Shown here one piece after another: positions 23,830-48,114 of a stretch of DNA of 64,000 bases. The translations under genes and the position numbers were made by a program. The notes below the pieces were generated by a model that saw only the letters and a list, made by a program, of their open reading frames with translations, was not told the DNA's origin and did no database searches. The stretch's first letter is position 1. Each line of letters begins with the position of its first letter. The DNA lies in the IMG/VR virus record IMGVR_UViG_3300024058_000001, positions 32,001 through 96,000 of that record; one strand, written 5' to 3'. The DNA comes from a virus (taxonomy: Duplodnaviria > Caudoviricetes).

Positions 23830-24600
23830 TTAAACCTTCTCATCTGTTTCAGGTTGTTGATATTCTTCTTCTTCTTTTTTTTCTTCTTTTTTTGGTTCTT
23901 TAGGATCGTTTTTTCTAATTTCATCTTTCCTTGTAAGCATAGTTTTTTTAGTCTCCCTAATTTTTTGTTCTAATGCAACTCTATCTCCGCCAGTAGTTTT
24001 TAATCTTTCATTAGATAACATTTCTTGTTCTTCTGCATATTTACTGGATATAGCTGACGATTTAATAGCATTTCCATCATATTGATAATTGCAACAATTA
24101 TTCCAATCAACATCATCTGTAATAATTTTGCAAGTACTTGGTTGTTGAAATCTTATACAACGTATGCATCCAAAACCTTCATCTCTCTCATCGTATCCAG
24201 CTTCTTCTTTTAATAATCTAAAAGGATTTGTTTGACTAGGTTTTGCATTTGGCCCCGTCATACGTAATTGACAAGTACCTTCTGGTTCTATATGTCCTAG
24301 AACATTAGTGCATTCGCCTGTTTCTGGAATGTACATACTACAAGTTACACATTGATATTTTCCTTCTATATCATCTGTAACTAAGACAACCATTTTGCCA
24401 TCGCCTAACATAATATTTCTTTTTTCAATTGCTTTTTCAAACTCTTCTTTTAAAATAGATACTGATTCATTCTTAACAAACAAATGGACAAATCTTCTAC
24501 CACCATCTGTTACTGTTGTACCTTTTCTAATTGTGTTTAATTGTTCTTCCGTAACATCAATACGATAACCTTTAATTATAACTGAATATATTTTGCTCAT
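23830..24600 (-). CDS. Protein with shared N-terminal domain and two HiPIP-like Cys4 repeats
   Basis: CVTCSMY...CTNVLGHIEPEGTC and AGY...CIRCIRFQQPSTCKIITDDVDWNNCC; N-terminus homologous to 45814..48114. Confidence 0.55.
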   Translation of the reverse strand: MSKIYSVIIKGYRIDVTEEQLNTIRKGTTVTDGGRRFVHLFVKNESVSILKEEFEKAIEKRNIMLGDGKMVVLVTDDIEGKYQCVTCSMYIPETGECTNVLGHIEPEGTCQLRMTGPNAKPSQTNPFRLLKEEAGYDERDEGFGCIRCIRFQQPSTCKIITDDVDWNNCCNYQYDGNAIKSSAISSKYAEEQEMLSNERLKTTGGDRVALEQKIRETKKTMLTRKDEIRKNDPKEPKKEEKKEEEEYQQPETDEKV

Positions 24601-25346
24601 TAGCTTATCTCCGCATCAGATAATATTGCTTGAATAGTTTGTTCACCTATAAATGCATCGTTTGATATTGTTTCAATATTTATTATCTTAGGTAAAATTC
24701 GATTAGTCTTATTGTAATGCCGAAGCATTTGTAAATCAGATAATAATTGTGCTTCATTATCTTGAATTATTTGATTTGTTTGACTAACAATATTAGATTT
24801 ATTAATTGTACGTCCACCAACACTTACACTAAAGAAATCTTTTGATTCTAAAATTAAAGCTCTTAGTACATTAGTATAAAAACGTTTACAAATAGCAGGT
24901 CTATAATCTTCAGGAATATTATCTTGATCAACAGGTCTATATATTAAAACTGATATTTCACTAGCAGAATGACTAGCTATTTGGAATAACTGTGGATCAG
25001 TAAAAGGAAAGAATGTATATGTTGCTATCAAGGATTCATCGGTAGTTAGTGGAGTAAGTAATACAACACGTCCACCAATAAAATCAATAATATAATCATC
25101 TGTTTCAAATAGCAATTCTGATACACCAGTAATATTATTAAGTTTCTTTATCTTTGGTTTGGGAACAGCTTGCCAGTTACCGTTCTTTGCATCAAAAACA
25201 CCATTAGATGAATCAAACGGACATAATTCTTCGTCCACTACGCTACATAACAGTTTAGTTAATAGCACATCTTTACACAATTGTGTAATCTCTGTTATAT
25301 CATCAGGAATTGCTATTGATGGATCTAAAAAGATAACGTCAGACAT
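24600..25346 (-). CDS. Head-tail connector/neck structural protein
   Basis: DYIIDFIGGRVVL motif; FSVSVGGRTINKS adaptor-like C-terminus. Confidence 0.5.
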   Translation of the reverse strand: MSDVIFLDPSIAIPDDITEITQLCKDVLLTKLLCSVVDEELCPFDSSNGVFDAKNGNWQAVPKPKIKKLNNITGVSELLFETDDYIIDFIGGRVVLLTPLTTDESLIATYTFFPFTDPQLFQIASHSASEISVLIYRPVDQDNIPEDYRPAICKRFYTNVLRALILESKDFFSVSVGGRTINKSNIVSQTNQIIQDNEAQLLSDLQMLRHYNKTNRILPKIINIETISNDAFIGEQTIQAILSDAEIS

Positions 25347-25356
25347 TTGTTACTCC

Positions 25357-25938
25357 TTAATTTCCTATGACGTTGTGTGTTCCGTTAGCGAACACCACAA
25401 GATCATGTGTTTCTCTAATAATACCTGTCTTAAAAAATTCTATTAAATACAATGCAGCATCTAAAAACACAGTTGCATTCCCTGAAGCATCTGTTTGTGC
25501 AACAGCAATAGCAACTGCAGGATTGGATTTGTCAAATATTCTAATTTGAGCATTGGGAATAGGAACAAGTGTAACTGAATTCTTTACAGTTACTGTAACT
25601 GCAAATGCTCCAGAACCTGTCGTACCATCAACTGGCACAACTCTGTATTCTTCTGTTGCCACAGTTGGAATTCCATCTATAGTAGTATTAAACGTAGTTA
25701 AATATTTTGTAAAAGATGCATTAGATGCAATAGGAAATTTAAAAAACCACCTGTTAGTGGCACCAATTCTAGTCATAGCAGTTGATGCTAAATCTTCTTC
25801 TTCAGGCCCCCCATTAATATGAGAGATCCTAACAGTAGGCGTAGTATAATCTGCAGGAAATGTTGGTTCACTTCCTGACAGTCTTAGCACTGTTAAGAGT
25901 ATAGTATTTTCTTGACTTTGATTAAATTCAAATCCCAT
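25357..25938 (-). CDS. Structural protein with C-terminal carboxypeptidase-regulatory/Ig-like domain
   Basis: VTVKN...PIPNAQIRI...TDASGNATVFL..ALYLIEFFKTG. Confidence 0.55.
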   Translation of the reverse strand: MGFEFNQSQENTILLTVLRLSGSEPTFPADYTTPTVRISHINGGPEEEDLASTAMTRIGATNRWFFKFPIASNASFTKYLTTFNTTIDGIPTVATEEYRVVPVDGTTGSGAFAVTVTVKNSVTLVPIPNAQIRIFDKSNPAVAIAVAQTDASGNATVFLDAALYLIEFFKTGIIRETHDLVVFANGTHNVIGN

Positions 25939-25960
25939 TAGTTATCACCTTTACTTTATT

Positions 25961-26392
25961 TTAGACTATTTCTGCTCCAGCTTGAATAAACTTAAATTTG
26001 CTAATATCATCTAGTACACATTGATGCTTGATCAAATCAGCAAGGGTAGTTGCGTCTATAACACCCTGTTTTGCTTCGTTAACGTATTGCTCTGTTAAAT
26101 CTTTAGCAATTTTTACAGGATTAGGTGCATTAGTATCAACCCATACAATTTCTTTTGATCCATCGTTCTTCTGTCTCCATTGTTCTCTATCTGTTCGATC
26201 TGTGGGGATATCGGCTAATTCCACATCTTCATATGGTAAATCCTTTTGGGGAGTACCGTCAATAGGATGATTTAACTTAGCTGTTTGTCTAGTCATTAAA
26301 TCTGCATCAGTTTCTCCTGGTAGTCTAGCTTTCTCTGCAAATTGGGTAATTAGCACTGATCCATCTGGTTTTTTAAATATGCGTATTTTCAT
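25961..26392 (-). CDS. Tail fibre assembly chaperone-like protein
   Basis: DIPTDRTDREQW motif; directly downstream of a fibre gene. Confidence 0.55.
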   Translation of the reverse strand: MKIRIFKKPDGSVLITQFAEKARLPGETDADLMTRQTAKLNHPIDGTPQKDLPYEDVELADIPTDRTDREQWRQKNDGSKEIVWVDTNAPNPVKIAKDLTEQYVNEAKQGVIDATTLADLIKHQCVLDDISKFKFIQAGAEIV

Positions 26393-26414
26393 AAATACTC
26401 CTTTTTAATGTTTA

Positions 26415-27746
26415 TTAATGATTTCCTACAGCCATTACACCAACGTTATCTCTGTCTGATTCACTACCATTATTGTCACGAATTGAAACATCTACACTAT
26501 CTGTAAATATGCCAAACCCTCCGGTACTATCAATAGTAACATAACCAACAGCCTTTCCTGTTCCAGCTATTACGTAATTTGCATCAGCAAAATCAATGTC
26601 CCAGTTTATTGTAGCTTCCCCTGTTCCTCTGTCCGTTATACTAGATACATTATAACTATCTACTAAAGTTGCTGTACCTGATGCTTGATCGTAATGAATC
26701 CATCCTTGTATTAACTGCTTTGCAACTGATTCATATGGATGTTGTGCATACGATATTGCTGTATCACCGTCTACTATACACATACCATCAAAGTAAACAG
26801 TTGTAGTATTTCCATCATTTGTCAATCGTAGGTTTATATTCGTCGCAGATGCATCAATAGTACGTGTCACAGAAATAAATTCCCATGCACCGCCACCAGT
26901 ATGATACGGAGAATTTGAACTTCCTCCACTATCACCTAATAATAAACGTCCTGCATTTGCAGCAGTTGCTCTTATCCAACACGAAAAAGTTAGATCACGA
27001 CCTCTGAAAATCGTGTTCTCCGAAGTAGTAATAACGGGTATAAAAAAACGACTTAGAGAGTTCCCACTTGCATCTGATAGCAACGCAAGAGAAAATTCAC
27101 CAAATAGAACATTCCCTGCACCAGATTCCTGAGAAACTGATCCACCATCAAGCAACGTCCACGCATTAAGCGCATCTGGTGGAACACTTGTCCCATTTCC
27201 CCATTGACTGAAATTTCCGTTTTCTATTAAATTTGTAAATTGTTGGGTTTCTCCACCTGATAATCCCGCAGCAGGTGCATCTTTAAATATTGCATTACCT
27301 GTGCCAGTGTCTTTTGTTAATATTTGTTCATTAGTAGCACCAGCTACATCTGTAATCTTATTTACTGCTGTTTGTCTAGCATCGTTTATCCAAACTGATC
27401 CGTTAAATCTTAAGAAATCATCAGTAGTAACGGATGTTAGAGTAACATCAGATAAGTCATTAAATGCTGACGCACCTGATACATCAATAGTAACTACACC
27501 TCCACCATCATCTGTTAGCTTTCCGTTTGTAACATTAATTGTAGTGACATTCGATACATTTGGTGCGCCGTCTGTCTCTTTAACTGTTAATGGTGTTCCA
27601 GTAAGATCAAGTGATACTTGTCCCCCACTTTGATCCGTAAGCTTCCCGTTAGTTACACGAATAACCGAAACATTGCTTACTACAGGACTGCCATCTTCTT
27701 CTCTTACTGTAACAAATTGTGTTGAACCTGTAAAACCTTGTGACAT
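26415..27746 (-). CDS. Tail fibre protein with carbohydrate-binding-like domain
   Basis: Two N-terminal TVxExDGxPxVSNV repeats; NLIENGNFSQW CBM-like domain; SYNVSSITDRGTG C-terminal fibre domain. Confidence 0.7.
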   Translation of the reverse strand: MSQGFTGSTQFVTVREEDGSPVVSNVSVIRVTNGKLTDQSGGQVSLDLTGTPLTVKETDGAPNVSNVTTINVTNGKLTDDGGGVVTIDVSGASAFNDLSDVTLTSVTTDDFLRFNGSVWINDARQTAVNKITDVAGATNEQILTKDTGTGNAIFKDAPAAGLSGGETQQFTNLIENGNFSQWGNGTSVPPDALNAWTLLDGGSVSQESGAGNVLFGEFSLALLSDASGNSLSRFFIPVITTSENTIFRGRDLTFSCWIRATAANAGRLLLGDSGGSSNSPYHTGGGAWEFISVTRTIDASATNINLRLTNDGNTTTVYFDGMCIVDGDTAISYAQHPYESVAKQLIQGWIHYDQASGTATLVDSYNVSSITDRGTGEATINWDIDFADANYVIAGTGKAVGYVTIDSTGGFGIFTDSVDVSIRDNNGSESDRDNVGVMAVGNH

Positions 27747-27937
27747 GATTTATCTCTCCAATTTTGTCTATTTATTAAGACCTAGAATTTTTTCAAGAAT
27801 TTCCAAACGAGCACGTATATCTTGACTTAAATCTGAATTTTTATCAATAACATCATATGCAATTTGAGCTTCAGTTTGAATTTGTTGTATTGTTTTTTTA
27901 TTTGTAATCTTTTTAATAGTCATAATTATACTCCAGT

Positions 27938-28267
27938 TTAAGTAACTTCTACTCCAAATAAATTAAAAGATAGAGTAGCCAAAGTTGCTAATACTCTAAC
28001 AACATCGGTTGCTGCCAAAGTAATTCCTAATGTAGCAGTAAACGTCTCATTACCAGGAATTGCAATATCGTAATAAATATACTGTTCATCTGAATCTACT
28101 GCTCCAGCAACTGCTATAGAAATTCTAAAAGACGTAGCAGTAGAACTACGATTTGCAACTGTTATTGAACTTCCTGTAACAGATGTACTACCAGGCACTG
28201 TATAAATATCTGTAAGCGTAGCTGCCAAAGGGTTTGATTGTCCTAAAACTTTAAGTGTGTCAGCCAT
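27938..28267 (-). CDS. Virion structural protein
   Basis: KVLGQSNP...YTVP...GITLAATDVVRV...FGVE pattern of small fibre-associated proteins. Confidence 0.6.
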   Translation of the reverse strand: MADTLKVLGQSNPLAATLTDIYTVPGSTSVTGSSITVANRSSTATSFRISIAVAGAVDSDEQYIYYDIAIPGNETFTATLGITLAATDVVRVLATLATLSFNLFGVEVT

Positions 28268-28268
28268 A

Positions 28269-28664
28269 TTATCCTCCCATTGTTAGAAATAGTCTTCCAA
28301 AACTTGCAGGTGCTGCCACAGGAGTATCACTAGTTCCTGTATTAATCCATACACGTTTATCAGTAACACTAGAAATAGATCCACCTGATGTAACAACCTC
28401 TGCAATAGGAATCCGTCCAGACGTAAAGCCTGATGTATTAGTCGAAGCAACTCCAACAGACGTTATCTCCACAAAATTTGTAGTATTATTAGTTAATACA
28501 ACATTTTGAGAAGACGCATTTGTAATAACATTGTCATCACGTATACGGCCAGCTTTAACAGTTAAATTTAAACCTGATGCAGCTAGGGGCCCAAAGTCTC
28601 TAAGATCATCAATTAAAACATCTAAATCTCTAATTTGTCCTGAACGAACTTCTGTACGTGCCAT
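28269..28664 (-). CDS. Virion structural protein, paralogous to a domain of 29092..31257
   Basis: AGRIRDDNV...FVEI...SGFTSGRIPIAEV..DKRVW. Confidence 0.65.
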   Translation of the reverse strand: MARTEVRSGQIRDLDVLIDDLRDFGPLAASGLNLTVKAGRIRDDNVITNASSQNVVLTNNTTNFVEITSVGVASTNTSGFTSGRIPIAEVVTSGGSISSVTDKRVWINTGTSDTPVAAPASFGRLFLTMGG

Positions 28665-28669
28665 TTATA

Positions 28670-29017
28670 TCATCCTTTTTTCTTAAATTTCTTCTTGAAT
28701 TCGTCTTTAGTAATCTTTTTATCAACATCTTTCTTAAGGGCTACTTTTTGTGCAATAATTCTGTCTTTGTTTCTTTGTTCTTTCATTCTAAGTATATTAG
28801 TATCGTTTTGATATAATGCCCATTCTCGCATAGTTCTTTTTAAATAATCTTTAGCACCTTGTAACTTTAATACTTGTTCTTTGTAACGAGCAGCGTCATC
28901 TTCTGCTTCTACTAGTTTTATTACTGCACTTCTATAATCTTTATCTAATTTTTCTAATTTATCGTTTGCAAATTCCCCAAAATTCCATCTTCGAGCTTCA
29001 TTAATATTGTCAGACAT
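28670..29017 (-). CDS. Coiled-coil hypothetical protein
   Basis: GGAGG RBS; heptad-like composition. Confidence 0.6.
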   Translation of the reverse strand: MSDNINEARRWNFGEFANDKLEKLDKDYRSAVIKLVEAEDDAARYKEQVLKLQGAKDYLKRTMREWALYQNDTNILRMKEQRNKDRIIAQKVALKKDVDKKITKDEFKKKFKKKG

Positions 29018-29046
29018 TGTATTGTCCTCCAGCTTTTAGTTTTTGT

Positions 29047-29070
29047 GGGGTAGGGCCGAAGCCCTACCCC
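29047..29070 (-). other. GC-rich hairpin with C(UUCG)G tetraloop
   Basis: GGGGTAGGGC-TTCG-GCCCTACCCC on the minus strand, followed by an A-rich tract. Confidence 0.8.
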
Positions 29071-29091
29071 GTATTAATTAAATTTTAGCTA

Positions 29092-31257
29092 TTATGGTTT
29101 TCTGTAAGAAACAAGCACTTCGTCGCCAGATAAAGGAGCAGAATTAAATGTAATCGTAGCTCCAGAGATGGTGTAGTCGTCAGACCCACCCTCATTCTGA
29201 AGAATACCATTCAAGTATACTTCCTCTGTTCCAGCAGTAGGTGTGTTCGCAAGAACACCAGTAGTATCTGCGCCATCAAAATCAAACGCCACGTCTTCAC
29301 GTGTAATAAAGTTTGATTCCGTAAGACCTCCACTACCAGCACTTTCTGCGTCCAACCATGCTCGTCTGTCAACAATTGCCGTAATGTCGCCTGAAGCAGC
29401 AGTAACTTCTGCAAGCGGAATGCGTCCAGCCGTAAAGCCAGAAACATTATTCGATACAGTACCGCTACCGTCTACTTCGACAAATGACACGTCATCATCA
29501 GCTACAGTGGTAGTACCAGCACTTACTGCGGTAACAACGTTATCATTTCTAACGGTGCCTGCAGCAAAATCAGCAACTAGTCCTGTACCTTCTGTAACTT
29601 GAAGATCACTAAGATGGTCTACATCAACTGCACCAGACACAATTTCGTCTGAATCGACAGAATCAGTAGCCAGTTCATTAGCTGTAATACCACTAGCTTT
29701 AATACGAAGAGTATCCGCATTAATTTCTATTGTGGAGTCATCAACATTTACGTCAAGTTCTCCGCCAGCAGCTTGGCCTAAACCAAGACCAGCAATATCG
29801 GCATTAATAGCATCCTTATCTACTGAGTCAGGAGCGTAATGCTCTGCATCAATAGAATCTGCTACGTAATGCTCACTGTCAATTTGGTCGTCGCCAATCT
29901 TTGCGCTAGTAACCGCATCAGCAGCCAGTTGAGCCGTATCAATACCTAAATTTTTAACATTCAAGGTATCGGTAGTAATCTCAATAGTGGTATCATCAAC
30001 ATTTACGTCGAGTTCGCCACCAGCAGCTTGACCTAAGCCAAGACCTGCGATATCAGCATTGATTGCATCTTTATCAACTGAATCAGGAGCATAATGTTCG
30101 GCATCAATAGAATCAGCCACATAATGTTCGCTGTCAATTTGATCATCAGCAATCTTCGCACCAGTCACAGCATCAGCAGCTAATTGAGCAGTGTCAATAC
30201 CTAAATCTTTAACATTTAGGATATCAGCAGAAATCTCAATAGTAGAATCATCTACTCTAACACTAAGTGTGTTACCAGACTTTAGAAGACCATCACCAGC
30301 AGTAATTTGGCCTGCACCAGAAAACTGGGCAAACTCCAAAAACTTGTTAGCTTTGCTACTAGTTAGTGTAATAGGATCATTGGCAGTAAGAACAAAACCA
30401 TTATCCTTATTAACTGTACCTTCCTCAATGAAGGTAAACAAACCAGCAGTGACTTCAGCATCAGTATCGGCATCGGTAGTACGAGTAAGAGTCAACGTAG
30501 TTGACGTTCCACCAGTAACTTCCCAAAGACCATTGTAAACACCGCGAGTAGCTTCTGTGCCACCTGCATCGGTTGTTTCATCTGAAGCCGTTTCAGCATC
30601 TTTAATGAGAATTCTATTTCCAGAAACAGGCTCTACCCCGTCAATAAGACCAAGGGAGGCACCTGCACTTAAACTAGAAATCGTCATAACCCCAGTAGCA
30701 CTGACAACATCAATAGTAACACTTGAAGTCCAGTTGGAATCAGAATCTGTAGCCATACGAGCAGAAAGTTTAACATCTAAACCTTGTGCAACGCCATCTA
30801 CATAAAGTTTGTTAGCTGCGTCAGTGTCAACCAACGGAGTTTTAACTCTAATTGTACCACTAGGAGAAAAATCATACGTTGCCGTAAGATCAAGCTCCGA
30901 AGCAGTAACAGCATCAGTCGCAATTTCATTTGACGTAATGCCACTAGCTTTAACCTGCAATGTATCAGCAGAGATTTCAATAGTAGAATCATCGACGTTA
31001 ACCGATAAAGCACTACCTCCACCACCACCTAAGCCATCGCCAGCTACAGAAGAGTTAAGCTGTGTTCCAGTAATACCTGCGTCTTTGACTTTGAGTACAT
31101 CTGTATCAATCGTCAGTGTACTATCATCGTCATTAACTTCTAAAGCAGCGCCACCGCCACCAACTAAACCATTACCAGCTACAGAAGTGTTAAGTTCTGT
31201 CTCTGTAACAGTTGCAGCTTTAATTTGTACATTTCCTCTAATTTGTGTAACAGCCAT
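29092..31257 (-). CDS. Abundant fibre/decoration protein with internal repeats
   Basis: Repeated VDDSTIEI..D.L.VK units; AANKLYVD motif; 85-aa tandem duplication. Confidence 0.7.
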   Translation of the reverse strand: MAVTQIRGNVQIKAATVTETELNTSVAGNGLVGGGGAALEVNDDDSTLTIDTDVLKVKDAGITGTQLNSSVAGDGLGGGGGSALSVNVDDSTIEISADTLQVKASGITSNEIATDAVTASELDLTATYDFSPSGTIRVKTPLVDTDAANKLYVDGVAQGLDVKLSARMATDSDSNWTSSVTIDVVSATGVMTISSLSAGASLGLIDGVEPVSGNRILIKDAETASDETTDAGGTEATRGVYNGLWEVTGGTSTTLTLTRTTDADTDAEVTAGLFTFIEEGTVNKDNGFVLTANDPITLTSSKANKFLEFAQFSGAGQITAGDGLLKSGNTLSVRVDDSTIEISADILNVKDLGIDTAQLAADAVTGAKIADDQIDSEHYVADSIDAEHYAPDSVDKDAINADIAGLGLGQAAGGELDVNVDDTTIEITTDTLNVKNLGIDTAQLAADAVTSAKIGDDQIDSEHYVADSIDAEHYAPDSVDKDAINADIAGLGLGQAAGGELDVNVDDSTIEINADTLRIKASGITANELATDSVDSDEIVSGAVDVDHLSDLQVTEGTGLVADFAAGTVRNDNVVTAVSAGTTTVADDDVSFVEVDGSGTVSNNVSGFTAGRIPLAEVTAASGDITAIVDRRAWLDAESAGSGGLTESNFITREDVAFDFDGADTTGVLANTPTAGTEEVYLNGILQNEGGSDDYTISGATITFNSAPLSGDEVLVSYRKP
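29746..30255 (-). repeat. 255-bp (85-aa) tandem intragenic duplication
   Basis: ATTTACGTC recurs at 29746 and 30001; near-identical amino acids. Confidence 0.85.
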
Positions 31258-31599: not shown

Positions 31600-31603
31600 A
31601 TGA

Positions 31604-31858: not shown

Positions 31859-31873
31859 TCCTCACGTTCAGTT

Positions 31874-32822: not shown

Positions 32823-33833
32823 TTAGGCTCCGACGTTTATGATTTTTCCCTGGAACGCCTCTGCGGTCAACTGCAGAACGGTAAACTCAGCAACTAAAGT
32901 ACGATAAGCGGATTGAAGTAAAGCAAGATCAATCGAAGATAGTGGCATTAAATCCACCATCTGGATTGCATTACCATCTTCAAGAACTGTCTTGTCATCA
33001 ATAACAAGAATAAAAGCATTACCCGCATCGGGAGTGATGTATCTTGAACCGATTACATCAACAACACCGAAAGGAGACAGCCAACGAGTAACCGAAATTC
33101 CCGCAGGAATATCAGCCATCGTGCCTGCACCAGCCTGGAAGAGTCTGTAAAAAGAACCCAACACAAGCTCGTTAAACTTCTGTAAGTCACGATAAGACAT
33201 GACTACAGCTTGAGGCTTACCACCCACCGTTACAATATTTTGTTCGACTGTAGTAATGTCGGACAGAGCTAAAGGAGAACCAGTATTATCAAGCACGTTA
33301 TCCGTGATTTGCTTTGCTAATCCATCGAATTGAAGACCAGTACCAGTGGAAGAATCTCCATTGATAATAGCCCATTCCTCCATGAGAGCAACGTTAAGCA
33401 TCTTTACTTTTACTTGATGTTTCTTAATGTCAGTGTAAGTTCCACCAGCCATTTGCTCGAAGAACGAAACATTAACGGTATCACCAAGAGAAGTATACGG
33501 AGCCGACCTAAACTTATAGTTAGGCTGACTTGCTTGAGGTAGTCCACCCTTTTCAAAAAATCCCTGTTCTGGAGCAGTACCACCCAAAAACAAATGTCCA
33601 GCAGAATCGGCTCCCGTTGAAACTGTGGGAGTCAATTGATACCAAGCATGGGCTTTTCCATTACCAGCGATTCGATTAAAACGATTACGTAAGGGAGTAT
33701 CAGTAGGAGCCATAATTGCCATTTCAGCCTGCAAGTCTTCACGGACTAGCAAAAGACCGCTAACATCTGTGGAAGAAATTGCTTTCTGAATGTCATTAAT
33801 AGCTTGCTCTACTATTTGCGCGTTATAATTCAT
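32823..33833 (-). CDS. Major capsid protein (HK97 fold)
   Basis: After the protease-scaffold; DTPLRNRF, EEWAIINGDS...FDGLAKQI; strong RBS; 336 aa. Confidence 0.9.
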   Translation of the reverse strand: MNYNAQIVEQAINDIQKAISSTDVSGLLLVREDLQAEMAIMAPTDTPLRNRFNRIAGNGKAHAWYQLTPTVSTGADSAGHLFLGGTAPEQGFFEKGGLPQASQPNYKFRSAPYTSLGDTVNVSFFEQMAGGTYTDIKKHQVKVKMLNVALMEEWAIINGDSSTGTGLQFDGLAKQITDNVLDNTGSPLALSDITTVEQNIVTVGGKPQAVVMSYRDLQKFNELVLGSFYRLFQAGAGTMADIPAGISVTRWLSPFGVVDVIGSRYITPDAGNAFILVIDDKTVLEDGNAIQMVDLMPLSSIDLALLQSAYRTLVAEFTVLQLTAEAFQGKIINVGA

Positions 33834-33889: not shown

Positions 33890-35821
33890 TTAAAGGGCTT
33901 TACCGAACTTAGCATCAAGCATCTTATTGACAACATTGTCTTTAAAACGCTCTTGATCGGGGGTCAACTTTGTTCCTTCTACACGCCATTTGGTTACAGT
34001 ATCAATATCTTTCTGTAGAGTATTATCTACTTTACCATCAGCATCTAGACTTTTTTCAATCTTGAACTTTCTCGGCTTAGGTTGACGCATTTGCTGTTCT
34101 ATCCCATCGAATCGCTTTCTCAGCGAATCCACTGCATCTACTACTTTTGATAGATCGTTCTGTGATCCATCGGCTTTCCTACTTCTTCCTGCTAAATAAC
34201 CTGCACCAGCAGCAGCGCCAACTTGGGCGCGACGACTACGAACTGCACGACCTGCAATATGCGTCATAGCTGCACGTGAACGTGCTACGTCTTTTACTCT
34301 AGATGCACCAGTTTTTACTTTCCCTGCCACACTTCTCGCTTGGCCTGGAACTTTACTAGCTGCACTACGAACTGCACCAACTGCGCGTTGTCCTACTGTG
34401 CGTCCTGCACTAATTGCGCGTTGTCCTAATTTACGACCTGCTCTAAGAGCTGCCATTGCAGCACTGCCTAAAGCTTTTTCTGTTGCTTCATCATCATCTT
34501 CATAATTCTTTTCTGTATCCTCATCGCCTTCTGGTTCCGTATCTTCATACGGATATGCACCTTCAGGATCTTGAGTTTGAGCATCTACAGTAGCGGGATG
34601 TTTACCAGGATATTTATCACCTTCGGAATCATGGCCATCTTTTTCGACCTCTTCTTCCGTTTCATCGTGATCTTCCTTTTCAAATTCTCCCTCTACTTCT
34701 ACATAATCAGCCTTTTCTGGATCGTCATCACCATATGGATAGTTGCCTTCGGCGTGTTGATTTTGTGGATCAACATCCGCAGCAGCTCCTGAATCTAAGG
34801 GATCAGTCTCCCCCAGGTCTGGATCTGATGTCGAACCTTTAGGCGTTCCTTTTGAACCCTCAATGGGTTTATAAGCACCTTCATATGCTTTGTCGATAAT
34901 ATCGGCAAGATTTGTGACAACCTCTACCAATGCATCGACTTTCTTATTCAATTCATCTATTTTCACGTTATTCCCTCCTCGGTAAACGTCTTTTACATGC
35001 GATTCAAATGCAGAACCTAATACTTCTTGAGCTTTGTCAAGTACTGCATCTGTTTCTTCAGTTACTAAATTATACTTCTCCATAGTTTCTAATGCCCGAA
35101 CTGCATGAACTTTATCTGGCATTGGAATTAATCTTTCCTTTGTTACTACTGAATCTTTAACAGACTTTCTAATAACACCAAAGTCGTCATCACTCAGTTT
35201 TTCTAATTGTTCTGTGTTTAATACTTTTCTAACCAACGAATCTGCTTTTTCTCTATGTTCCTTAACTTCTGTAAAAAGTGGATCGGTAGCTTCTGTTATA
35301 ACAACTTTCTTGATATCCTCAACAATTTCTGTTTGATAAGGTATACCATTAATGCTTTTTATTAAAGAAAAAGAACATCCAGGATTTGCAGGATTATCTA
35401 CTAGAGATAATTCATTAAGCTTATACTTGGTAATTCTACTAATATTTCTTGAACTACCAGTATCTAAGTCTTTAATTACTTCTTGTACCTTATTTACTGT
35501 TTGTCCACCAATAGAAAAACCATTCAAAATCCCTTCTTTAATCTTTTCCCATGTGTCACCTGCACCCTTCGATATATAGGCTTCTATCCAAATTTTCTTA
35601 GTATCATCATTTGGAGTAATTTCTATAGCCTTGCCTACCGCTTTGGCTTCGTGCATCTCACGGATATTTCCTTGCCATTTACTAAATGCTTCCTTGCTAC
35701 CATTATAGTCAACTATCTCGTTTTGTTTATCAATTTCCTCAGTAGTTGCCCAACCAGCGACTGTACGCTTTTCTGTATCTATTTTCTCAATAGGTACGTA
35801 CAAATTAAACTTAGTGCTCAT
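33890..35821 (-). CDS. Prohead protease (HK97/XkdF type) fused to scaffold, with a cationic insert
   Basis: NIREMH..KAVGK, GFSIGG, ELSLVDNPANP; acidic middle; coiled-coil C-terminus. Confidence 0.9.
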   Translation of the reverse strand: MSTKFNLYVPIEKIDTEKRTVAGWATTEEIDKQNEIVDYNGSKEAFSKWQGNIREMHEAKAVGKAIEITPNDDTKKIWIEAYISKGAGDTWEKIKEGILNGFSIGGQTVNKVQEVIKDLDTGSSRNISRITKYKLNELSLVDNPANPGCSFSLIKSINGIPYQTEIVEDIKKVVITEATDPLFTEVKEHREKADSLVRKVLNTEQLEKLSDDDFGVIRKSVKDSVVTKERLIPMPDKVHAVRALETMEKYNLVTEETDAVLDKAQEVLGSAFESHVKDVYRGGNNVKIDELNKKVDALVEVVTNLADIIDKAYEGAYKPIEGSKGTPKGSTSDPDLGETDPLDSGAAADVDPQNQHAEGNYPYGDDDPEKADYVEVEGEFEKEDHDETEEEVEKDGHDSEGDKYPGKHPATVDAQTQDPEGAYPYEDTEPEGDEDTEKNYEDDDEATEKALGSAAMAALRAGRKLGQRAISAGRTVGQRAVGAVRSAASKVPGQARSVAGKVKTGASRVKDVARSRAAMTHIAGRAVRSRRAQVGAAAGAGYLAGRSRKADGSQNDLSKVVDAVDSLRKRFDGIEQQMRQPKPRKFKIEKSLDADGKVDNTLQKDIDTVTKWRVEGTKLTPDQERFKDNVVNKMLDAKFGKAL

Positions 35822-40933: not shown

Positions 40934-41468
40934 TATAAGCCTCTTTTAGCGATTTATGCTTAGTCTGAAGTTGAAATAAATTTGTCGTAATTTGCGCCAT
41001 TGCTTCATTATTATGCGCGTTTCTCATATGATTATAAAAAAAATGAACTAATTCGTGAAATAACACCCATTCGTCCCCATTATAAATAATGATATCTTTA
41101 CCTATTAATTTATCTAAATTTACTCCTGCATGATATCTACCGTTATAAAATTTTCCGATAGCCGTAGGTGGATCATCTAAGGTCTCGGCTAAATAAATTC
41201 TAACCTTACTATTTACTTTATCAGCCGAAAAGAATTTCTTAAGAACTCCGTACATCTGTTCTGCCGTTTCTGCATCTGCTGCATACGAAATAATATGGTC
41301 TGTTTCTTGAGTAACTTTTGTACTAACTAGATTATAATCTTTAAGTTCTATTCTAAATCTTTTACCTGGATTAATATACAATAATATAGAATAGCAAAAT
41401 AATATAACTAAAATAACTCTAATTACTATTTTTCTTAACTTAACCACTATCGTCCTCATCAAATCCAA
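40875..41468 (-). CDS. Membrane-anchored HEXXH zinc metallopeptidase-like protein
   Basis: N-terminal TM helix; VLFHELVH...NEAMA. Confidence 0.65.
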   Translation of the reverse strand: MDLMRTIVVKLRKIVIRVILVILFCYSILLYINPGKRFRIELKDYNLVSTKVTQETDHIISYAADAETAEQMYGVLKKFFSADKVNSKVRIYLAETLDDPPTAIGKFYNGRYHAGVNLDKLIGKDIIIYNGDEWVLFHELVHFFYNHMRNAHNNEAMAQITTNLFQLQTKHKSLKEAYNEIDTKYRAGIISEIYETN

Positions 41469-43230
41469 TTCTTAAATCTGCGTCTATTCCTTGTTTTCTT
41501 AATTCTTTTACAGTTTTATCTACTAATTTATTTTGTTCTTTATATTTCTTTTTTCTATTAACCGAAACTTTTATAGTATTAGTACCATCTGAAATAGAGG
41601 GAGGTACCGCATTTTCCATTGTAGGACGACCTGCATCGCCATCAACTTGTTGTTCAGGTTCAGGCCCTGGTTGCAATCCAAAAGGATCGGTTCTCTCATT
41701 TTGTTGAAATCCTCGATTAGGCATACCGCCTAATTCATCAAGTTTATCAATATCTTTAACTGGAACCATACCAACACCAGTTTTAATCATTTGTTCATCT
41801 CCGCCCTCAATGGGCTTCTTACCAAGTTTCTTTCTTCTTTCATTAATTGAAATAACACCAGAATCCATGTCAAGTCTGTCAACCTGCGATTGCTGGATAT
41901 CGTCTTTTAGCTCTGCACTTTGCCATTCAAATTTTACATCCTGAAAACCAAACTCTGCCTTTACAATCTCTTCATTAAAAAAAGAAGCTAACAAATTTAA
42001 AAGTGTTTTAACTCCTCTTGCTTGTGATAGCTTTGCTTGAACTTCAGCGGTAGTACGGTGAAAGTCTAAGACAAACCCTATGTCCTGTGGGCTTATTCCG
42101 TATACCGCGCATTTAATGGCAACTGTCCATTTTAAATATTCCATCATTTGCATGTCTCTATTAGACTGCACACGCATAGGAATAAAATCTAATTTGTCAG
42201 ATCCTGATGTAATTAATAGTTTATGAAGACCACCTCGACCTTGTACTTCTTGTTCCCATAAATTTTGAAACATCTGTCGTTGGTCTTCAGATACATTTTC
42301 TCCAAGATTTAGCACACCAGGAGGAACATTAGAATTTTTAAAATAATCAATATTATATTCATCTGCATATAAACTTGCAGTAATAATATACGCAGCTACT
42401 TCTAATGGAGAAACACCATAGCCAGTTTGTTGAGGATTTTGAGATATATATAGTAATTCGTCATTTGTAAATTCTGCACGAATTACTCCTTTATCTTCCC
42501 ATACATATGCAGGTTCTGGTGCTTTAGGTATCGTTCTATCTTCATTTCTATAAATCTTTACTTCTTGTCCTGGTAATGGATAAATCTCCGCCAAATTTCC
42601 AAGATAATCATAATTTTTTACAATAACACCAGAATCGTAAATTAAAATATCATCTAAAACTAACTCTAATAATGTTCTAAATGTTGTTTCTGTTTGATTT
42701 GGATGCTCTAAAATACACTTAACTTTGTATTTATGTTCTTCTGCATTCTGTTTAACTCGTTTTGCCCACGCCTTAAAAAACCATCTAACGGCTTCTCTTT
42801 TTGCTTTTTCATCTATAGCCTTTTCAATAATTGGAGGAAGACTACTTCGTATTTCATCTTGTATTTCTTCTGGTAAAATTTGAGATTTAAACGGAGGAAG
42901 ATCATATCCATAAGGATTAAGAGAAGTTAAAATAGATTCTTCCCACCTATCCAATTCAGCCTCTAAATTATCGGTATCAGGGACTATATCCCATTTAGTC
43001 TGACTAATAAATCCTTTTATTACTCTGCGAATAGCCCAAGTAACTGGATCAGTATTCGCTAATCGCCCTAATGTTGCAGCACTCAGAGTAAATTGTCGCT
43101 GAACTTTTTTACCAGTGGTATTATTAAGAAATCTAAACATACCTTTGCGAGGTACGGGTTCACCACGACCTGGATCAAGCTTTAGTGCTTTACTAAAGGT
43201 ATTCTGAATTTTCTTAATTAAGTTTGCCAC
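41440..43230 (-). CDS. Portal protein
   Basis: GYGVSPLE, YFKNSNVPPGVL, CAVYGISPQDIG, SINERRKKLGKKPIEGGD. Confidence 0.93.
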   Translation of the reverse strand: MANLIKKIQNTFSKALKLDPGRGEPVPRKGMFRFLNNTTGKKVQRQFTLSAATLGRLANTDPVTWAIRRVIKGFISQTKWDIVPDTDNLEAELDRWEESILTSLNPYGYDLPPFKSQILPEEIQDEIRSSLPPIIEKAIDEKAKREAVRWFFKAWAKRVKQNAEEHKYKVKCILEHPNQTETTFRTLLELVLDDILIYDSGVIVKNYDYLGNLAEIYPLPGQEVKIYRNEDRTIPKAPEPAYVWEDKGVIRAEFTNDELLYISQNPQQTGYGVSPLEVAAYIITASLYADEYNIDYFKNSNVPPGVLNLGENVSEDQRQMFQNLWEQEVQGRGGLHKLLITSGSDKLDFIPMRVQSNRDMQMMEYLKWTVAIKCAVYGISPQDIGFVLDFHRTTAEVQAKLSQARGVKTLLNLLASFFNEEIVKAEFGFQDVKFEWQSAELKDDIQQSQVDRLDMDSGVISINERRKKLGKKPIEGGDEQMIKTGVGMVPVKDIDKLDELGGMPNRGFQQNERTDPFGLQPGPEPEQQVDGDAGRPTMENAVPPSISDGTNTIKVSVNRKKKYKEQNKLVDKTVKELRKQGIDADLRIGFDEDDSG

Positions 43231-43633
43231 TTTTTATCACCAGTTCTATAAGGGCTATTATATTTTTATGCTCTAATAGTTCCATTTGATTTCTATATGT
43301 TTTTCTAGCTTTCTCATCTTTGACATATGTCTTAATCAAAAAATGAACAAATTCATCTAGTTCATTAAATCTTACATGTAATAATTCATGAGCAATCGTA
43401 CTATCTAATTCTTTCGGAGATTCTAATAAAAGTTTTTTGTTTAGTTCTATGTCTGCGGTACGGGTTTCTTCATCCACGTACACCGTTGCGTATGATCCGC
43501 TAATTTTATCTTTCTTTTTTATCTTGGATGGTAATACAATATCAACCTCAAATTTGTAATCACTAATCCCAAGAAGTTTAGCGTATCGCACAACTTTCTT
43601 TTTTATATCGCTTTTTAATCTTTTTTTTATCAT
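43214..43633 (-). CDS. SprT-like HEXXH zinc metallopeptidase
   Basis: LDSTIAHELLH...LEH. Confidence 0.7.
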   Translation of the reverse strand: MIKKRLKSDIKKKVVRYAKLLGISDYKFEVDIVLPSKIKKKDKISGSYATVYVDEETRTADIELNKKLLLESPKELDSTIAHELLHVRFNELDEFVHFLIKTYVKDEKARKTYRNQMELLEHKNIIALIELVIKSGKLN

Positions 43634-43895
43634 CTCTTTTGAAATATTTCCTGCTCTTTATTTTTTTATCTTTATTCTTTTTTATTTCTTTTTCTGCAAG
43701 ATACATATCAATTAATAAATCATGAATCTCTTCTTTTGTAATTGCAGGCTTTTTAGATGCAATTTTATCAGCAATTTCCATAAGTTCACCAGGAAGTTTT
43801 TTTCTTTCGCGTGGATGAAAATAGTCACTATACATAAATATCATCTGCCTTATCACAAAGATTACCGTTACACATGTCAACGGCCACATTTCCAT
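43578..43895 (-). CDS. Hypothetical protein
   Basis: N-terminal hydrophobic stretch; basic C-terminus overlapping the next gene. Confidence 0.45.
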   Translation of the reverse strand: MEMWPLTCVTVIFVIRQMIFMYSDYFHPRERKKLPGELMEIADKIASKKPAITKEEIHDLLIDMYLAEKEIKKNKDKKIKSRKYFKRDDKKKIKKRYKKESCAIR

Positions 43896-43897
43896 AA

Positions 43898-44179
43898 TTA
43901 TATAATTCGTTCAGGCAACCAGGCTGAATATGCAGGTCTAACTCTTGGTGTATCTGATGCAATTTCGTTATCAGGTTGAGTAACCCTATTAGTCATCTGA
44001 TTTTGTTGGTGCTTTTGGCCGTGAACGATGTCCTCATTTTTCTTTTTTGGTCGTTTAATTCCTAAATCTTCTCTAACAAGTAAAAGTCCAGGAACATCTA
44101 TAGAAGTTATTTCTTTTCTAATAGTTTGAAGTTTTCCTAAATAATCTCTAAGTTGTTCTATGAATTCCAATTTGTTCAT
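43898..44179 (-). CDS. Small protein carrying a copy of the capsid protein N-arm
   Basis: IRKEITSIDVPGLLLVREDL vs capsid IQKAISSTDVSGLLLVREDL. Confidence 0.7.
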   Translation of the reverse strand: MNKLEFIEQLRDYLGKLQTIRKEITSIDVPGLLLVREDLGIKRPKKKNEDIVHGQKHQQNQMTNRVTQPDNEIASDTPRVRPAYSAWLPERII

Positions 44180-44183
44180 TTTA

Positions 44184-44501
44184 TTATCCTGTAAAATGGC
44201 TTATTACTCTAATTATAGTCCAACCTAGTCCTATAATTATAACTAATACTTTTAGTACAATAGACAAAAATTCCGAAGCCCCTTGAACTTTCAATGACTT
44301 AGTTTCTAATGGCTCTAATCTCTTACCATAAGCTTTAATAGCGTTACCATTTTCTTCTATTAAATGAGGCAAATGATTTGTAACATGAGTATTTACTTCA
44401 GTAACAAGTTTGCCTAATTCAGTAACCTCATATTTAAGACCATCTACTTCATTTTCAATATGTTTTATTCTACCTTCGTATCTATCATCTGCCATATTCA
44501 A
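44184..44501 (-). CDS. XhlA/holin-like coiled-coil membrane protein
   Basis: Coiled coil, TNHLPH motif, single C-terminal TM helix. Confidence 0.5.
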   Translation of the reverse strand: MNMADDRYEGRIKHIENEVDGLKYEVTELGKLVTEVNTHVTNHLPHLIEENGNAIKAYGKRLEPLETKSLKVQGASEFLSIVLKVLVIIIGLGWTIIRVISHFTG

Positions 44502-44504
44502 ACC

Positions 44505-44837
44505 TCACCTTGTTTCCAAAACAAATTTATATTGCTGTAAAAAATTATCCCAATCTGTAAATTTAAAAGCTTCATTATCTAACATTACATCGTATTTTGG
44601 TTTTCCAAACATTATGCTATCATATTTTATATTGTTTTTTTGAAGCCATACTTCTGTATCCATACCTAAACTAACATCTCGTTTAGAATATATTAAAATT
44701 GTATGATTTAATTGTTTCAATTTATCTAAAGCTTCTTTAGCCCCAGGTAATACTTCACACTTTGAAACTTGATCAAGTGCATGCCAATTGGATATAGGAG
44801 TACAAATAATTTTATCTAGCTCTAACGCAATAATCAT
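44505..44837 (-). CDS. HAD-like (capsule-biosynthesis phosphatase-like) protein with degenerate motif I
   Basis: IIALELDKIIC...HTILIYSKR...TEVWLQKNNIKYDSIMFGKP.YDVMLD. Confidence 0.7.
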   Translation of the reverse strand: MIIALELDKIICTPISNWHALDQVSKCEVLPGAKEALDKLKQLNHTILIYSKRDVSLGMDTEVWLQKNNIKYDSIMFGKPKYDVMLDNEAFKFTDWDNFLQQYKFVLETR

Positions 44838-44846
44838 CGCTCACCT

Positions 44847-45803
44847 CTATTTAAAATAATCAAAACTAAAACGTCTACGTCCTTCTCTTGGGCGTATTTG
44901 ACGGCCATTAACTAAATAATTTCTATATGTTGCTGTATTAAGAACTTGATAAGTATTTGCTACTCTGCTAGAAACAATTTTTCCCTCATCAAATGCCCCT
45001 AACTTAGAATCAAAATAATAAACTAAATCGCCTGGTTTAAATCGACGAAATATTCTAAACTGTTTATCTATAGCATTATCTCTCTTACTTGTCTTTGAAC
45101 GTCTTTTACCAGCAGCATAGCCTGCTGCAGGCAATGCACTTATACCTGCTATACGCGCTGTTTTACCTGCAATTCTTCTTTTACCTGCACGTGTACCCAT
45201 ACTTTGTCTAAATGTTTCTGCTTTATACCTTTGTTTACGTCCTATATTACGTACCTTAACTCCTACTGAACCTAATTTACGTCCTATTGTAGAGACTGCA
45301 CTAGCTATTCCTTTTTTTGTATTTACATTTGCAGTTGTTTCAATTCCTCTTTCATCTGACATTACAACAGGAACCTTTTCATAGCCAAGTTCTTTAAGAG
45401 CTACAAATCTATGATGACCATCTGTTACCATTTTACCAGGTTTTCCATCATGGTCAATTTCGGTATAAACTAATGGTTTAATATCTCCACTAATTTTAAT
45501 AGCGTGTTTTATTTTGTCTACCTTGTTTCGGTCTAATGTTCTATTATATGGATTTGGAAGCAACTCAGAAATGTTAATTTCTTCTATTTTTATCTTTACC
45601 ATTCTTCCCCATTGACTATTTCCGCGATGCTCACTTCTAGGGCCAATGGCAGAAGATCCTTCACTCGAAGGATTAAAATTAAAACCTTCTGCTTCAGGCG
45701 GATTAGTGCTAATAGCAGGAAATCTATATTCCCGTGTTTCAGCCTTATTTATCTGCCTAGTTAAATCTCTTAGTTGAGTCCATGTTTTCATATTTGTTAT
45801 CAT
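44847..45803 (-). CDS. Multi-module protein: QLRD leader + ParB/Srx-like domain + cationic cassette + SH3/Tudor-like domain
   Basis: LLPNPYNR...IKPL...VTDGHHRFVALKELGYEKVPV; TKK-GIASAVSTIGRKL; FKPGDLVYY. Confidence 0.7.
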   Translation of the reverse strand: MITNMKTWTQLRDLTRQINKAETREYRFPAISTNPPEAEGFNFNPSSEGSSAIGPRSEHRGNSQWGRMVKIKIEEINISELLPNPYNRTLDRNKVDKIKHAIKISGDIKPLVYTEIDHDGKPGKMVTDGHHRFVALKELGYEKVPVVMSDERGIETTANVNTKKGIASAVSTIGRKLGSVGVKVRNIGRKQRYKAETFRQSMGTRAGKRRIAGKTARIAGISALPAAGYAAGKRRSKTSKRDNAIDKQFRIFRRFKPGDLVYYFDSKLGAFDEGKIVSSRVANTYQVLNTATYRNYLVNGRQIRPREGRRRFSFDYFK

Positions 45804-45813
45804 CTTGTAATCT

Positions 45814-48114
45814 TTAAATTATTCGTGTTTTAGTTCTAGCAGCAAGATTTCTAACCCTTCCCAAATCTCGATATGTTTTGGATCTTGTAGCTGCCTGTGC
45901 TCTGCCAATTTGTTTAATTCTTCCTAATTGTTGAACCTGCTGTCCCATCATTTGCCCAATTTGTTTTCTTTCTCTAACTATTCTATTGTATTGTGCATTA
46001 AGTGAAGGCTTCTTTATTTTTTGTCCTATTGAACGTATTTTACGTCCTACTGCACGTGCTGCACTGCCTATACCTTTTTCTGTATCTTCTGTAATACCAT
46101 TCCAACCGCATCGTTTTCTTAAATTCTTTAATTCCTTTTTAATATTTTGTAATTCCATTACCTTTTTTCTTTTCTTACGTCCGTATGCTGACTTCATCCT
46201 ATATCCCATCATTCTAGCTCCTGCAGTTCCTACCTTTATACCCAAATTTCTTCTACGAGCACCTTTTGGCAATTTTCCTGCTGCGATACGAGACAAAGCT
46301 CCACCAGGACGTTTTAGTTCCGCTTTAGCACCAGCGTCAAGACCTATATTTATTAATTTATTACCTACACGTCTAACAACAGATCCCACTTTAGATCGTA
46401 AACCTTTTTCTGTATCACCATTTTTCAAATTATCTAGTTTCTTTTTAACATCTGTAATAGATACTACCTTATAACTTTTCTTAGGTTTACCAAACGCGCC
46501 TAAACTATGTGCAAGATAACTACCTTCTGCAACAGGAAGGGCCACTCTTGCTACTCGTCCCACACGTGTTCTTCCAAATTTAGCTCCTGCACGTTGGGCT
46601 GATAATCCTGCTCTACTTCTTACTCCGCGTGTTCCTTTCCATCCTGCTTTTGTTCCTGAAATTAACTTAGGAGCTAACTTTCTGCCTATTGCTAACGCTC
46701 CACGTCCTGCAGCTACCAAAGCAGCTCCATATTTTTCTACATCCTCTGTATCATCCATATCTTTTTCTATATCTGCCATTTGGTCAACTTTATCAAAAAG
46801 CTCCATAATATCATTTAGTTCTTCAGGAACTAAATACTTTATCAGTTCCTGTTGTTCTACTGGAGATGCAAATTCCAACATGTCAATGATCTCAGCAATA
46901 CTAAAATCTTTAGATAAATCCTTTGTTTGTGCACTTTTTTCTCTAAATACTCTGCCTAACAATCCTGATCCAGGTGTGTGAGCAACTGTTGTTACAGGTT
47001 TTGATGCACCAATGGCATCTCTTATTTTGCCAGTTCTAAAATCTTTAATTCCTCCACCTAAAGTTTGAGTTGTATATACTCTGTTTACTGGAATTTTTCC
47101 TACGTAAGTCTTTATTTTACCTCCAAGTTGCCTTAGCCTCTTTATACCAGCACGTCTAGTCGCTGGATGTGCTAACGCAGCAATAGCACCAAGACCTGCA
47201 GCAGCACCCGCAATACGGCCAGCTTTACCACGTTTAGAACCTTGCTCTGCTTTATTAATAATTTCCATATGACCTTTAGGATCGTCACACCATATTTTTT
47301 GTAATGAACCATCTGAACTTACCTTAGTAACAGAAACACCTTTCATTGCAGGTAAACCAAATGTTGGCTCAACTGGTTGTCCTGGTTGTCTTAATGGCCC
47401 AGGCACTTGCGCTTCTTCTGGTTCTACAGGTGCTTCAGGTACTTCAGGAACACCACCAGGTTCAACACTAGTATCTACTTGTCCTTTACAATGTGGACAA
47501 ACTACTTGTAAGGGTTTTGCTTCTTCTGGAGTTTCCGCAGATTCCTCAACATCTTCTTGAGGTTCCTCTTCTGGAAGTTCTTCTTCTCCTTCAGATCCAC
47601 CAAATTCTCCTGTTTCTAAATCTTCAGGAACTTCCTCTGCAGATTCGTCTTGAGGCTCTTCAATTACTTCCCCATTTTCATCAACAACATCTTCTTCTTT
47701 TTCTTCCTCTTCGGGCAAACGCTCTTGTGGGTCATTAGCGTTAGTTGTAGCTATTTGTTCACCAGGTTGTTCAGCTTGTCCTTGCATTTCTTGATCTGTC
47801 TGAGGATTTATATTATCTTCTACAGGTTTATCTAATACCTGTTCAGCCGTAGATTCTACCACTTCTTTTTCTTTAGGTGGTAACGCATTTTCTAATTCTT
47901 CTAACTCTTCTGGAGACATATTAGCCAATATGCCCTTTTTAATTTCATTATCAAACTCTTGTTTGCCAACATCGATTCTACCCTTGCTCGTAAATACATG
48001 AACGATTTTCTTTTGGGTTTCAGTTGTAACTTCACCCTTTTTAATAGCGTCCAAGTCAGCTTGGGTAAAGTCAAATCGTTGACCCTTTACCACGATTGTA
48101 TACACTTTACTCAT
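45814..48114 (-). CDS. Putative internal head polyprotein (acidic region + four cationic cassettes)
   Basis: Glu/Pro-rich N-half; cassettes after IINK, DVEK, DTEK, DTEK. Confidence 0.7.
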   Translation of the reverse strand: MSKVYTIVVKGQRFDFTQADLDAIKKGEVTTETQKKIVHVFTSKGRIDVGKQEFDNEIKKGILANMSPEELEELENALPPKEKEVVESTAEQVLDKPVEDNINPQTDQEMQGQAEQPGEQIATTNANDPQERLPEEEEKEEDVVDENGEVIEEPQDESAEEVPEDLETGEFGGSEGEEELPEEEPQEDVEESAETPEEAKPLQVVCPHCKGQVDTSVEPGGVPEVPEAPVEPEEAQVPGPLRQPGQPVEPTFGLPAMKGVSVTKVSSDGSLQKIWCDDPKGHMEIINKAEQGSKRGKAGRIAGAAAGLGAIAALAHPATRRAGIKRLRQLGGKIKTYVGKIPVNRVYTTQTLGGGIKDFRTGKIRDAIGASKPVTTVAHTPGSGLLGRVFREKSAQTKDLSKDFSIAEIIDMLEFASPVEQQELIKYLVPEELNDIMELFDKVDQMADIEKDMDDTEDVEKYGAALVAAGRGALAIGRKLAPKLISGTKAGWKGTRGVRSRAGLSAQRAGAKFGRTRVGRVARVALPVAEGSYLAHSLGAFGKPKKSYKVVSITDVKKKLDNLKNGDTEKGLRSKVGSVVRRVGNKLINIGLDAGAKAELKRPGGALSRIAAGKLPKGARRRNLGIKVGTAGARMMGYRMKSAYGRKKRKKVMELQNIKKELKNLRKRCGWNGITEDTEKGIGSAARAVGRKIRSIGQKIKKPSLNAQYNRIVRERKQIGQMMGQQVQQLGRIKQIGRAQAATRSKTYRDLGRVRNLAARTKTRII

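Follow-up and report, generated by a model that had tools for sequence, protein, structure and literature searches.

A repeat-built N-terminal domain shared by otherwise unrelated proteins of an uncultured phage, a possible virion-docking handle

Conserved N-terminal anchors of tail fibres and receptor-binding proteins, such as T7 gp17, dock interchangeable C-terminal parts at one site of the phage particle. The subject here is a domain of about 60 residues that forms the N-terminus of two otherwise unrelated proteins, A and B, encoded in 64,000 nucleotides of phage DNA (positions 32,001 to 96,000 of IMG/VR record IMGVR_UViG_3300024058_000001; "the window" below means this whole stretch). Described elements with which it can be compared include the T4 capsid-targeting sequence (CTS) of IPI, IPII, IPIII and Alt (Mullaney and Black), which is N-terminal and suffices to load any cargo into the prohead (PMC9024508, PMC3012670). 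In phage P1, an N-terminal signal of 30 residues loads the accessory protein DarB into the head, as shown by experiment (PMC9024508), and the P1 Dar cargo includes the head-packaged ParB-domain protein DdrB (PMC5512222). The MuF domain (Mu gp30, SPP1 gp7; Pfam PF04233) is found fused to effector domains and has its place, like the phage polyvalent proteins, which unite several effector or enzyme domains in one chain encoded with virion genes, in the same field (Iyer et al. 2017, PMC5512222).

The window comes from an uncultured phage whose record is complete, with terminal repeats and a length of 104,771 bp; no DNA-level match to it was found among GenBank phages. All genes lie on the minus strand, and so do all features for which window positions are given below. 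We tentatively read the shared domain as a portable virion-docking handle for accessory proteins, a reading that we favour without regarding it as probable in absolute terms.

The shared N-terminus of A and B

Gene A (23830-24600) encodes 256 amino acids and has 11 homologues at 54-88% identity; gene B (45814-48114) encodes 766 amino acids. BLASTP aligns residues 1-60 of A with residues 1-60 of B without gaps, with 22 of 60 residues identical (37%) and 39 of 60 positive (E 9e-13), whereas every segment outside these residues has E > 2. The first-pass annotation, made from the letters and open reading frames (ORFs) of the window, had described an ungapped alignment of about 60 residues, unrelated sequences after it, and I-x-K at matching positions. 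All three observations are borne out, the last with I-x-K at residues 24-26 and 58-60 of both proteins. A plus-strand reading of the same coordinates was rejected, as the frames are full of stops. In an all-against-all comparison of the 295 window ORFs, the A/B pair has E 4e-11 and is one of only five pairs below 1e-3. The complete record holds exactly two copies of the domain, and searches with profile and unit hidden Markov models detected none in the genome or its relatives beyond A, B and a protein of one relative (L004 332-907). At the DNA level, identity between the domain-coding parts of A and B is only about 55%, and their upstream regions show no relationship, which argues for an old duplication or shuffling event and not for recent gene conversion.

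The domain occupies positions 24421-24600 in A and 47935-48114 in B. According to the AlphaFold2 model, it is a tandem of two beta-hairpin-plus-helix units of about 26 residues each, separated by a linker of about 8 residues. In A, strands are predicted for residues 4-9 and 12-17, followed by a helix at 18-26, and again for residues 36-42 and 45-50, followed by a helix at 51-62. The secondary structure is the same in the models of full-length A and of the domain only, and the domain model has a pLDDT of 68. Unit 1 comprises residues 2-27 (24520-24597 in A, 48034-48111 in B) and unit 2 residues 35-61 (24418-24498 in A, 47932-48012 in B). The two units align in register, and I-x-K is seen twice because it is the helix end of each repeated unit. 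The internal similarity stands out against shuffled sequences in P0007 (z 8.0), P0020 (z 4.0), P0018 (z 3.4) and B (z 3.0), and has faded in A itself (z 1.0). Single-unit forms exist as well: the A-family proteins P0008-P0013 have lost exactly one repeat period, and the B-family protein L004 332-907 (191 aa) also has one unit. Six positions (K3, Y5, G11, R13, D15 and L21) show at least 90% conservation among 14 domain sequences, and the domain is basic, with a pI of 9.1-9.4.

No family could be assigned. A and B match no Pfam or PHROG family at E ≤ 0.01, and the domain alone finds nothing relevant in Pfam at E ≤ 10 and, among the sequences of solved structures, nothing better than E 0.16. Fold searches with the domain model gave no convincing fold in the PDB (best Foldseek E 0.28), in VIA (best Z 3.3), in BFVD (best E 0.019, at an rmsd of 12) or in the Atlas (TM at most 0.45), and the model of full-length A has its best match at Z 4.1. 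The weak structural neighbours of the domain are small beta-rich nucleic-acid binders and the N-termini of homing endonucleases. A known non-virion family, which would have spoken against the first-pass annotation, did not come up for the domain in these searches.

Other carriers and their cargo

The profile of the two window copies was run exhaustively against 1.84 billion representative proteins. It gave 12 matches, namely the two queries, two false positives and eight true members. The false positives, P0019 and P0023, are repeats of a bacterial surface protein. In all true matches the domain starts at residue 1-4, except in P0022 (residue 7) and P0020 (residue 14). P0015 (276 aa) is of the B type, ends after the acidic/CPHC part and has an N-domain 80% identical to that of B. 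In P0016 (93 aa) and P0017 (75 aa), an A-type domain is joined directly to an A-type charged tail, the Cys-rich core of A being absent, and P0018 (65 aa) is a stand-alone domain. P0016 was found on three contigs (up to 19 kb) and P0018 on two (up to 28 kb), so that both can be taken as real genes. P0022 (148 aa) combines the domain with a Tudor/Agenet-like C-terminus, P0020 carries an odd hydrophobic tail, and P0021 and P0024 are fragments. P0014 was left out, as it looks like a chimeric short contig (DUF655 plus a fragment of A). A 95-aa ORF of the relative G003 (L003 5416-5703) had a one-unit look by eye; it was not recovered once omitted from the model and was rejected.

The search for other fused cargo that the first-pass annotation had proposed has thus recovered A-type, B-type and Tudor-like fusions together with near stand-alone forms, and the proposed modularity holds: the domain heads three unrelated families, occurs nearly alone elsewhere, sits at the extreme N-terminus and has one-unit and two-unit forms. 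By sequence, the domains group according to cargo, with the A-type domains together, B with P0015, and P0022 with P0020, a pattern that marks each fusion as old and maintained. Scans of viral, metagenome and genome data for loci of A-type, B-type, stand-alone and Tudor-fusion members gave nothing new, and among the proteins of G001-G004 no clearly analogous shared N-termini were found.

In A, the N-domain is followed by a Cys-rich core and a charged helical tail. The core (aa 64-180, 24061-24411) contains nine Cys residues that are nearly invariant in the 11 homologues, arranged in two CxxC...C...C motifs. The spacing of these motifs is CxxC-x8/9-C-x11/12-C in both cases. A profile search of the core against PDB sequences returned three matches only, two of which are high-potential iron-sulfur proteins (HiPIPs), one for each half of the core and with the Cys residues aligned. 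These two matches are weak (3h31, E 0.4; PioC 6xyv, E 1.2), the Pfam HIPIP model has no match in the genome, and AlphaFold2 does not model the core reliably (pLDDT about 30), so that the iron-sulfur identity stays a lead. Judged by its sequence, the core may be an iron-sulfur or zinc protein placed among neck genes.

The start codon of A overlaps the stop codon of the 248-aa gene directly upstream (24600-25346; no Pfam or PHROG family match) in the sequence TAATG, and the two genes are translationally coupled. Directly downstream of A lies a gene resembling head-closure protein Hc1 (23396-23827), with a weak match to phrog_161 (E 0.0068), and then a gene with a weak match to Neck1/tail completion proteins (E 6e-4), after which the tail genes follow. 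The first-pass description of A as a neck-region gene holds as far as these weak matches carry it. Scans for promoters and terminators around A and B stayed at chance level.

In B, the N-domain is followed by an acidic disordered linker, a CPHC motif and a basic Gly/Ala-rich region. The linker (aa 61-240, 47395-47934; pI 4.05) holds a conserved KPLQVVCPHCKGQV motif (Cys 206/209, about 47488-47499), which is kept in P0015 and in L004 332-907, where a single unit is followed by the acidic linker of B and the motif. The basic region (aa 251-766, 45817-47364; pI 10.8) contains cassettes that resemble those of the protease-scaffold protein (33890-35821) and of the ParB-like protein encoded directly downstream of B (44847-45803), with z 3.3 and 3.7 (p < 0.01, shuffles preserving local composition). 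In all three proteins, acidic spacers ending in D/E-T-E-K precede the basic Gly/Ala-rich cassettes (protease-scaffold aa ~430-545, B aa ~448-563 and ~676-763, ParB-like protein aa ~160-238). No enzyme domain is recognisable in B in Pfam, PHROG and protein-index searches. B is at most a putative polyprotein, the term that the first-pass annotation uses for it. A full-length homologue was not found in GenBank phages, in IMG/VR or, with either the whole of B or residues 251-766 as the query, in an index of 5.8 billion proteins.

The ParB-like protein (318 aa) has a ParB-like nuclease domain (Pfam ParB_N, E 6.9e-7) and a Tudor-like C-terminus. The C-terminus of P0022 is homologous to this part (aa 250-306, E 1e-10) and to the 108-aa gene beside the B-like gene of L004 (E 8e-9), which means that in P0022 the domain sits on the neighbour of B. 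The ParB-like protein is itself a mosaic, as L004 910-1236 encodes the same N- and C-terminal parts as a 108-aa protein that lacks the ParB domain and the basic cassette. In relatives, the ParB domain heads giant proteins (L003 5872-8769, 965 aa; L014 489-5000, 1503 aa) that resemble polyvalent proteins.

B and the Tudor/ParB gene form a variable cassette, which both in the window and in L004 is flanked by the endonuclease gene and a conserved 110-aa gene. The cassette is absent from the equivalent spot in L007 and L014, and L014 has its ParB domain inside the 1503-aa protein. The complete relatives G001 and G002 have neither A nor B. Together, these differences indicate that the carriers are accessory genes in the morphogenesis block and not part of the core structure. 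Their placement in this block is read from the window and L004, where the gene context is legible: B and L004 332-907 lie between the terminase and portal genes, and A lies among the neck genes. All carriers with a readable context are thus inside the terminase-to-neck block, and the occurrence on non-structural proteins that would have contradicted the first-pass annotation was not encountered.

Docking and its alternatives

As a docking handle, the domain would be a small folded module of two beta-hairpin-plus-helix units, with a flexible or charged linker between it and its cargo. During assembly it would attach to a single partner that the phage encodes and that is located at the prohead core, the portal or the neck, and it might be removed later. 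Accessory proteins of unrelated sequence, namely the Cys-rich A, the acidic/basic B and, in relatives, a Tudor-like protein, could enter the particle by this route. The portal protein (41440-43230) is a candidate for the docking partner. We favour this reading because of the N-terminal position of the domain, its three cargo families and long-maintained fusions, the accessory nature of the carrier genes between terminase and neck, its high conservation in the B family, the cassettes that B has in common with the protease-scaffold protein, the ParB-type neighbour of B, and the precedents of the T4 CTS, the P1 DarB signal and MuF fusions. The first-pass annotation had the cargo delivered into the head. 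Its view of a modular domain with different cargo stands, whereas the head is only one possible destination: with A coupled to neck genes, and with core-less and stand-alone forms in existence, the cargo could equally be addressed to the portal or neck, and the role of the domain may go beyond that of a passive tag.

Several observations weigh against docking. The modularity is thin, as each genome has just two carriers and the cargo families number three. The core-less and stand-alone forms P0016-P0018 imply that the domain probably does something alone. A lies among neck genes and lacks the basic cassettes, so that A and B may have different destinations. Finally, although no part of the B-family proteins is better conserved than the domain (80%, versus 50% in the linker), in A-family proteins the domain trails the core (~50% versus ~75%). 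A more ambitious version of the docking reading is distinctly unlikely. It would make the folded beta-beta-alpha repeat a new virion-loading ticket in an uncultured clade of ~100-kb phages, docking interchangeable accessory proteins (tandem Cys4, possibly iron-sulfur, or scaffold-like and basic) at one portal-proximal site, with all cargo families of one genome changing their number of units together so as to fit the same receptor.

The near-alone forms and the variable number of units would be accounted for if the hairpin units paired between chains and the domain did nothing except turn its carriers into dimers or higher oligomers. We consider such self-association unlikely, though it is the foremost of the alternatives. 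Hairpin-helix repeats can come and go in register, the domain occurs stand-alone or without the core of A, and a monomer model of moderate confidence (pLDDT 68) is what would be expected if an oligomer completes the fold. In its pattern, the domain may resemble the swapped hairpins of AbrB, MazE and SpoVT, a swapped dimer being something that a monomer model cannot show. However, AbrB/MazE came up neither in Pfam (E up to 10) nor in the fold searches, and oligomerization by itself would leave the restriction to genes of the morphogenesis module unexplained. Somewhat less credible still is binding to nucleic acid: like the small DNA-binding modules of homing endonucleases, a basic beta-beta-alpha unit could anchor the carriers on phage DNA, for instance at a genome end close to the portal. 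The pI of the domain fits this idea, and so do its weak structural neighbours: the N-terminus of I-HmuI (Z 3.3), an AP2 protein and several HNH or homing endonucleases of phages from BFVD (E 0.09-0.3), Atlas clusters of the HNH_3 and GIY-YIG types (TM 0.28-0.40), and Tudor, Sac7d and Hfq proteins in the PDB (E 0.3-1.2). Nucleases are moreover encoded by adjoining genes, the ParB-like gene and the 128-aa endonuclease gene (48432-48818; PHROG endonuclease family, E 4e-27). All these structural matches are nevertheless below significance and of mixed folds, NUMOD, AP2 and other DNA-binding Pfam families give no match at E up to 10, and the six conserved residues are mostly structural in kind.

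The remaining explanations give the domain no address and appear to us improbable to much the same degree. Two proteases are encoded nearby, the prohead protease and an S8 subtilase (48799-50121; Pfam E 1.1e-60) whose N-terminal segment is hydrophobic. The domain might be a pro-domain that keeps the cargo inactive or soluble until one of them cuts it off, perhaps at I-x-K, which ends both units and has a similar counterpart in the N-arm of the capsid protein. A cut at the I-x-K of residue 26 would fall inside the fold, however, and the stand-alone forms carry nothing that could be kept inactive. Phage genomes are mosaics and this one has only two copies, and it is therefore conceivable that an exon-like N-terminal piece was copied by illegitimate recombination and kept as a working start and soluble N-terminus. 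Such a leftover is hard to reconcile with a domain that has been kept under selection in three cargo lineages, with the higher conservation of domain than linker in the B family, and with the six strongly conserved positions.

Neighbouring genes and known addressing systems

In the order of transcription, the block starts with an SbcC-like gene, an AAA ATPase gene and the large terminase gene (53638-55512). These are followed by genes for a 618-aa protein, a 257-aa protein, the S8 subtilase, the 128-aa endonuclease, a 67-aa protein, B and the ParB-like protein, and then by small genes and the genes for the portal, the protease-scaffold, a capsid protein of the SU10 type (32823-33833), a 721-aa Ig-like protein, several unassigned proteins and A. 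The portal protein (Pfam Phage_portal, E 1.8e-33) is 25-30% identical to portals of cultured phages, the nearest being those of Bacillus CP-51-like phages and other large myoviruses. The prohead protease is fused to a scaffold-like tail in a protein of 643 aa (PHROG head maturation protease, E 9.5e-39; Pfam S78, E 1.3e-4).

A few further resemblances in this region deserve mention. L014 keeps the pair of subtilase and endonuclease genes between terminase and portal, and L007 keeps it in part. A stretch of 23 residues (65% identity, E 1.6e-4) with the pattern D-V-x-G-L-L-L-V-R-E-D-L is common to the N-arm of the capsid protein (aa 12-34) and a 93-aa protein (aa 17-39) whose gene (43898-44179) lies just upstream of the portal gene; both this small protein and the motif are kept in L004, L005, L007 and L014. 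A 131-aa gene (28269-28664) copies residues 529-636 of the neighbouring Ig-like, decoration-like protein of 721 aa (29092-31257), with 37% identity over 108 aa (E 1.4e-19). The motif G-W-[FI]-G-D-x-x-x-H-A-E-A-A-R, with a hydrophobic stretch rich in Gly and Ala after it, occurs twice in the 618-aa protein (51182-53038; aa ~78-96 and ~450-470) and twice in the 965-aa ParB fusion of L003, and a degenerate form, W-C-D-D-P-K-G-H ... A-L-A-H-P-A-T-R-R, is seen in B (aa ~274-283). The motif was recognised by eye, and pairwise scores are not significant.

If the docking handle is real, A, B and the Tudor/ParB protein would be marked as particle-borne, and possibly as injected, in a phage group that has no cultured member, and the domain might be usable as a loading tag. 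The family is tiny, with about ten representatives in 1.8 billion proteins, and has two carriers per genome, which limits its general reach, barring experimental proof of function.

Among the described systems, the T4 CTS is similar in being an N-terminal element common to otherwise unrelated proteins encoded with head genes, and the T4 cargo also includes basic internal proteins. However, the T4 element is a peptide of ~10 residues that ends in a gp21 cleavage site, whereas the element described here is a folded domain of 60 residues and two units, with predicted strands and helices. The protease encoded in the window is of the HK97/S78 type, and one of the carriers lies among neck genes. With P1, the likeness is in the cargo: the Dar system has a ParB-like cargo, and here a ParB-like gene lies beside B, its Tudor-like part being fused to the domain in P0022. 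There is no sequence similarity to the DarB signal, which is shorter, and the P1 Dar proteins lack a common N-terminal sequence.

The MuF and polyvalent proteins come close in another respect, as they combine a folded head-incorporation domain with swappable cargo and are encoded between terminase and portal. The giant ParB fusions of L003 and L014 lie at the equivalent place in the relatives. Compared to MuF, the domain is much smaller, built from repeats and also present on a gene of the neck module, and the MuF profile is not matched by A, B or the domain at the Pfam and PHROG thresholds given above. The anchors of tail fibres share the principle of a conserved N-terminal plug with interchangeable C-terminal parts, but are found on trimeric fibre proteins, whereas A and B have no fibre-like features and belong to head and neck modules. 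N-terminal addressing to the virion is a known strategy, and the domain, rare and uncatalogued, belongs to none of the families known for it. As a docking handle, it would add a folded, repeat-built module to the T4 CTS, the P1 DarB signal and MuF as addressing routes in tailed phages.

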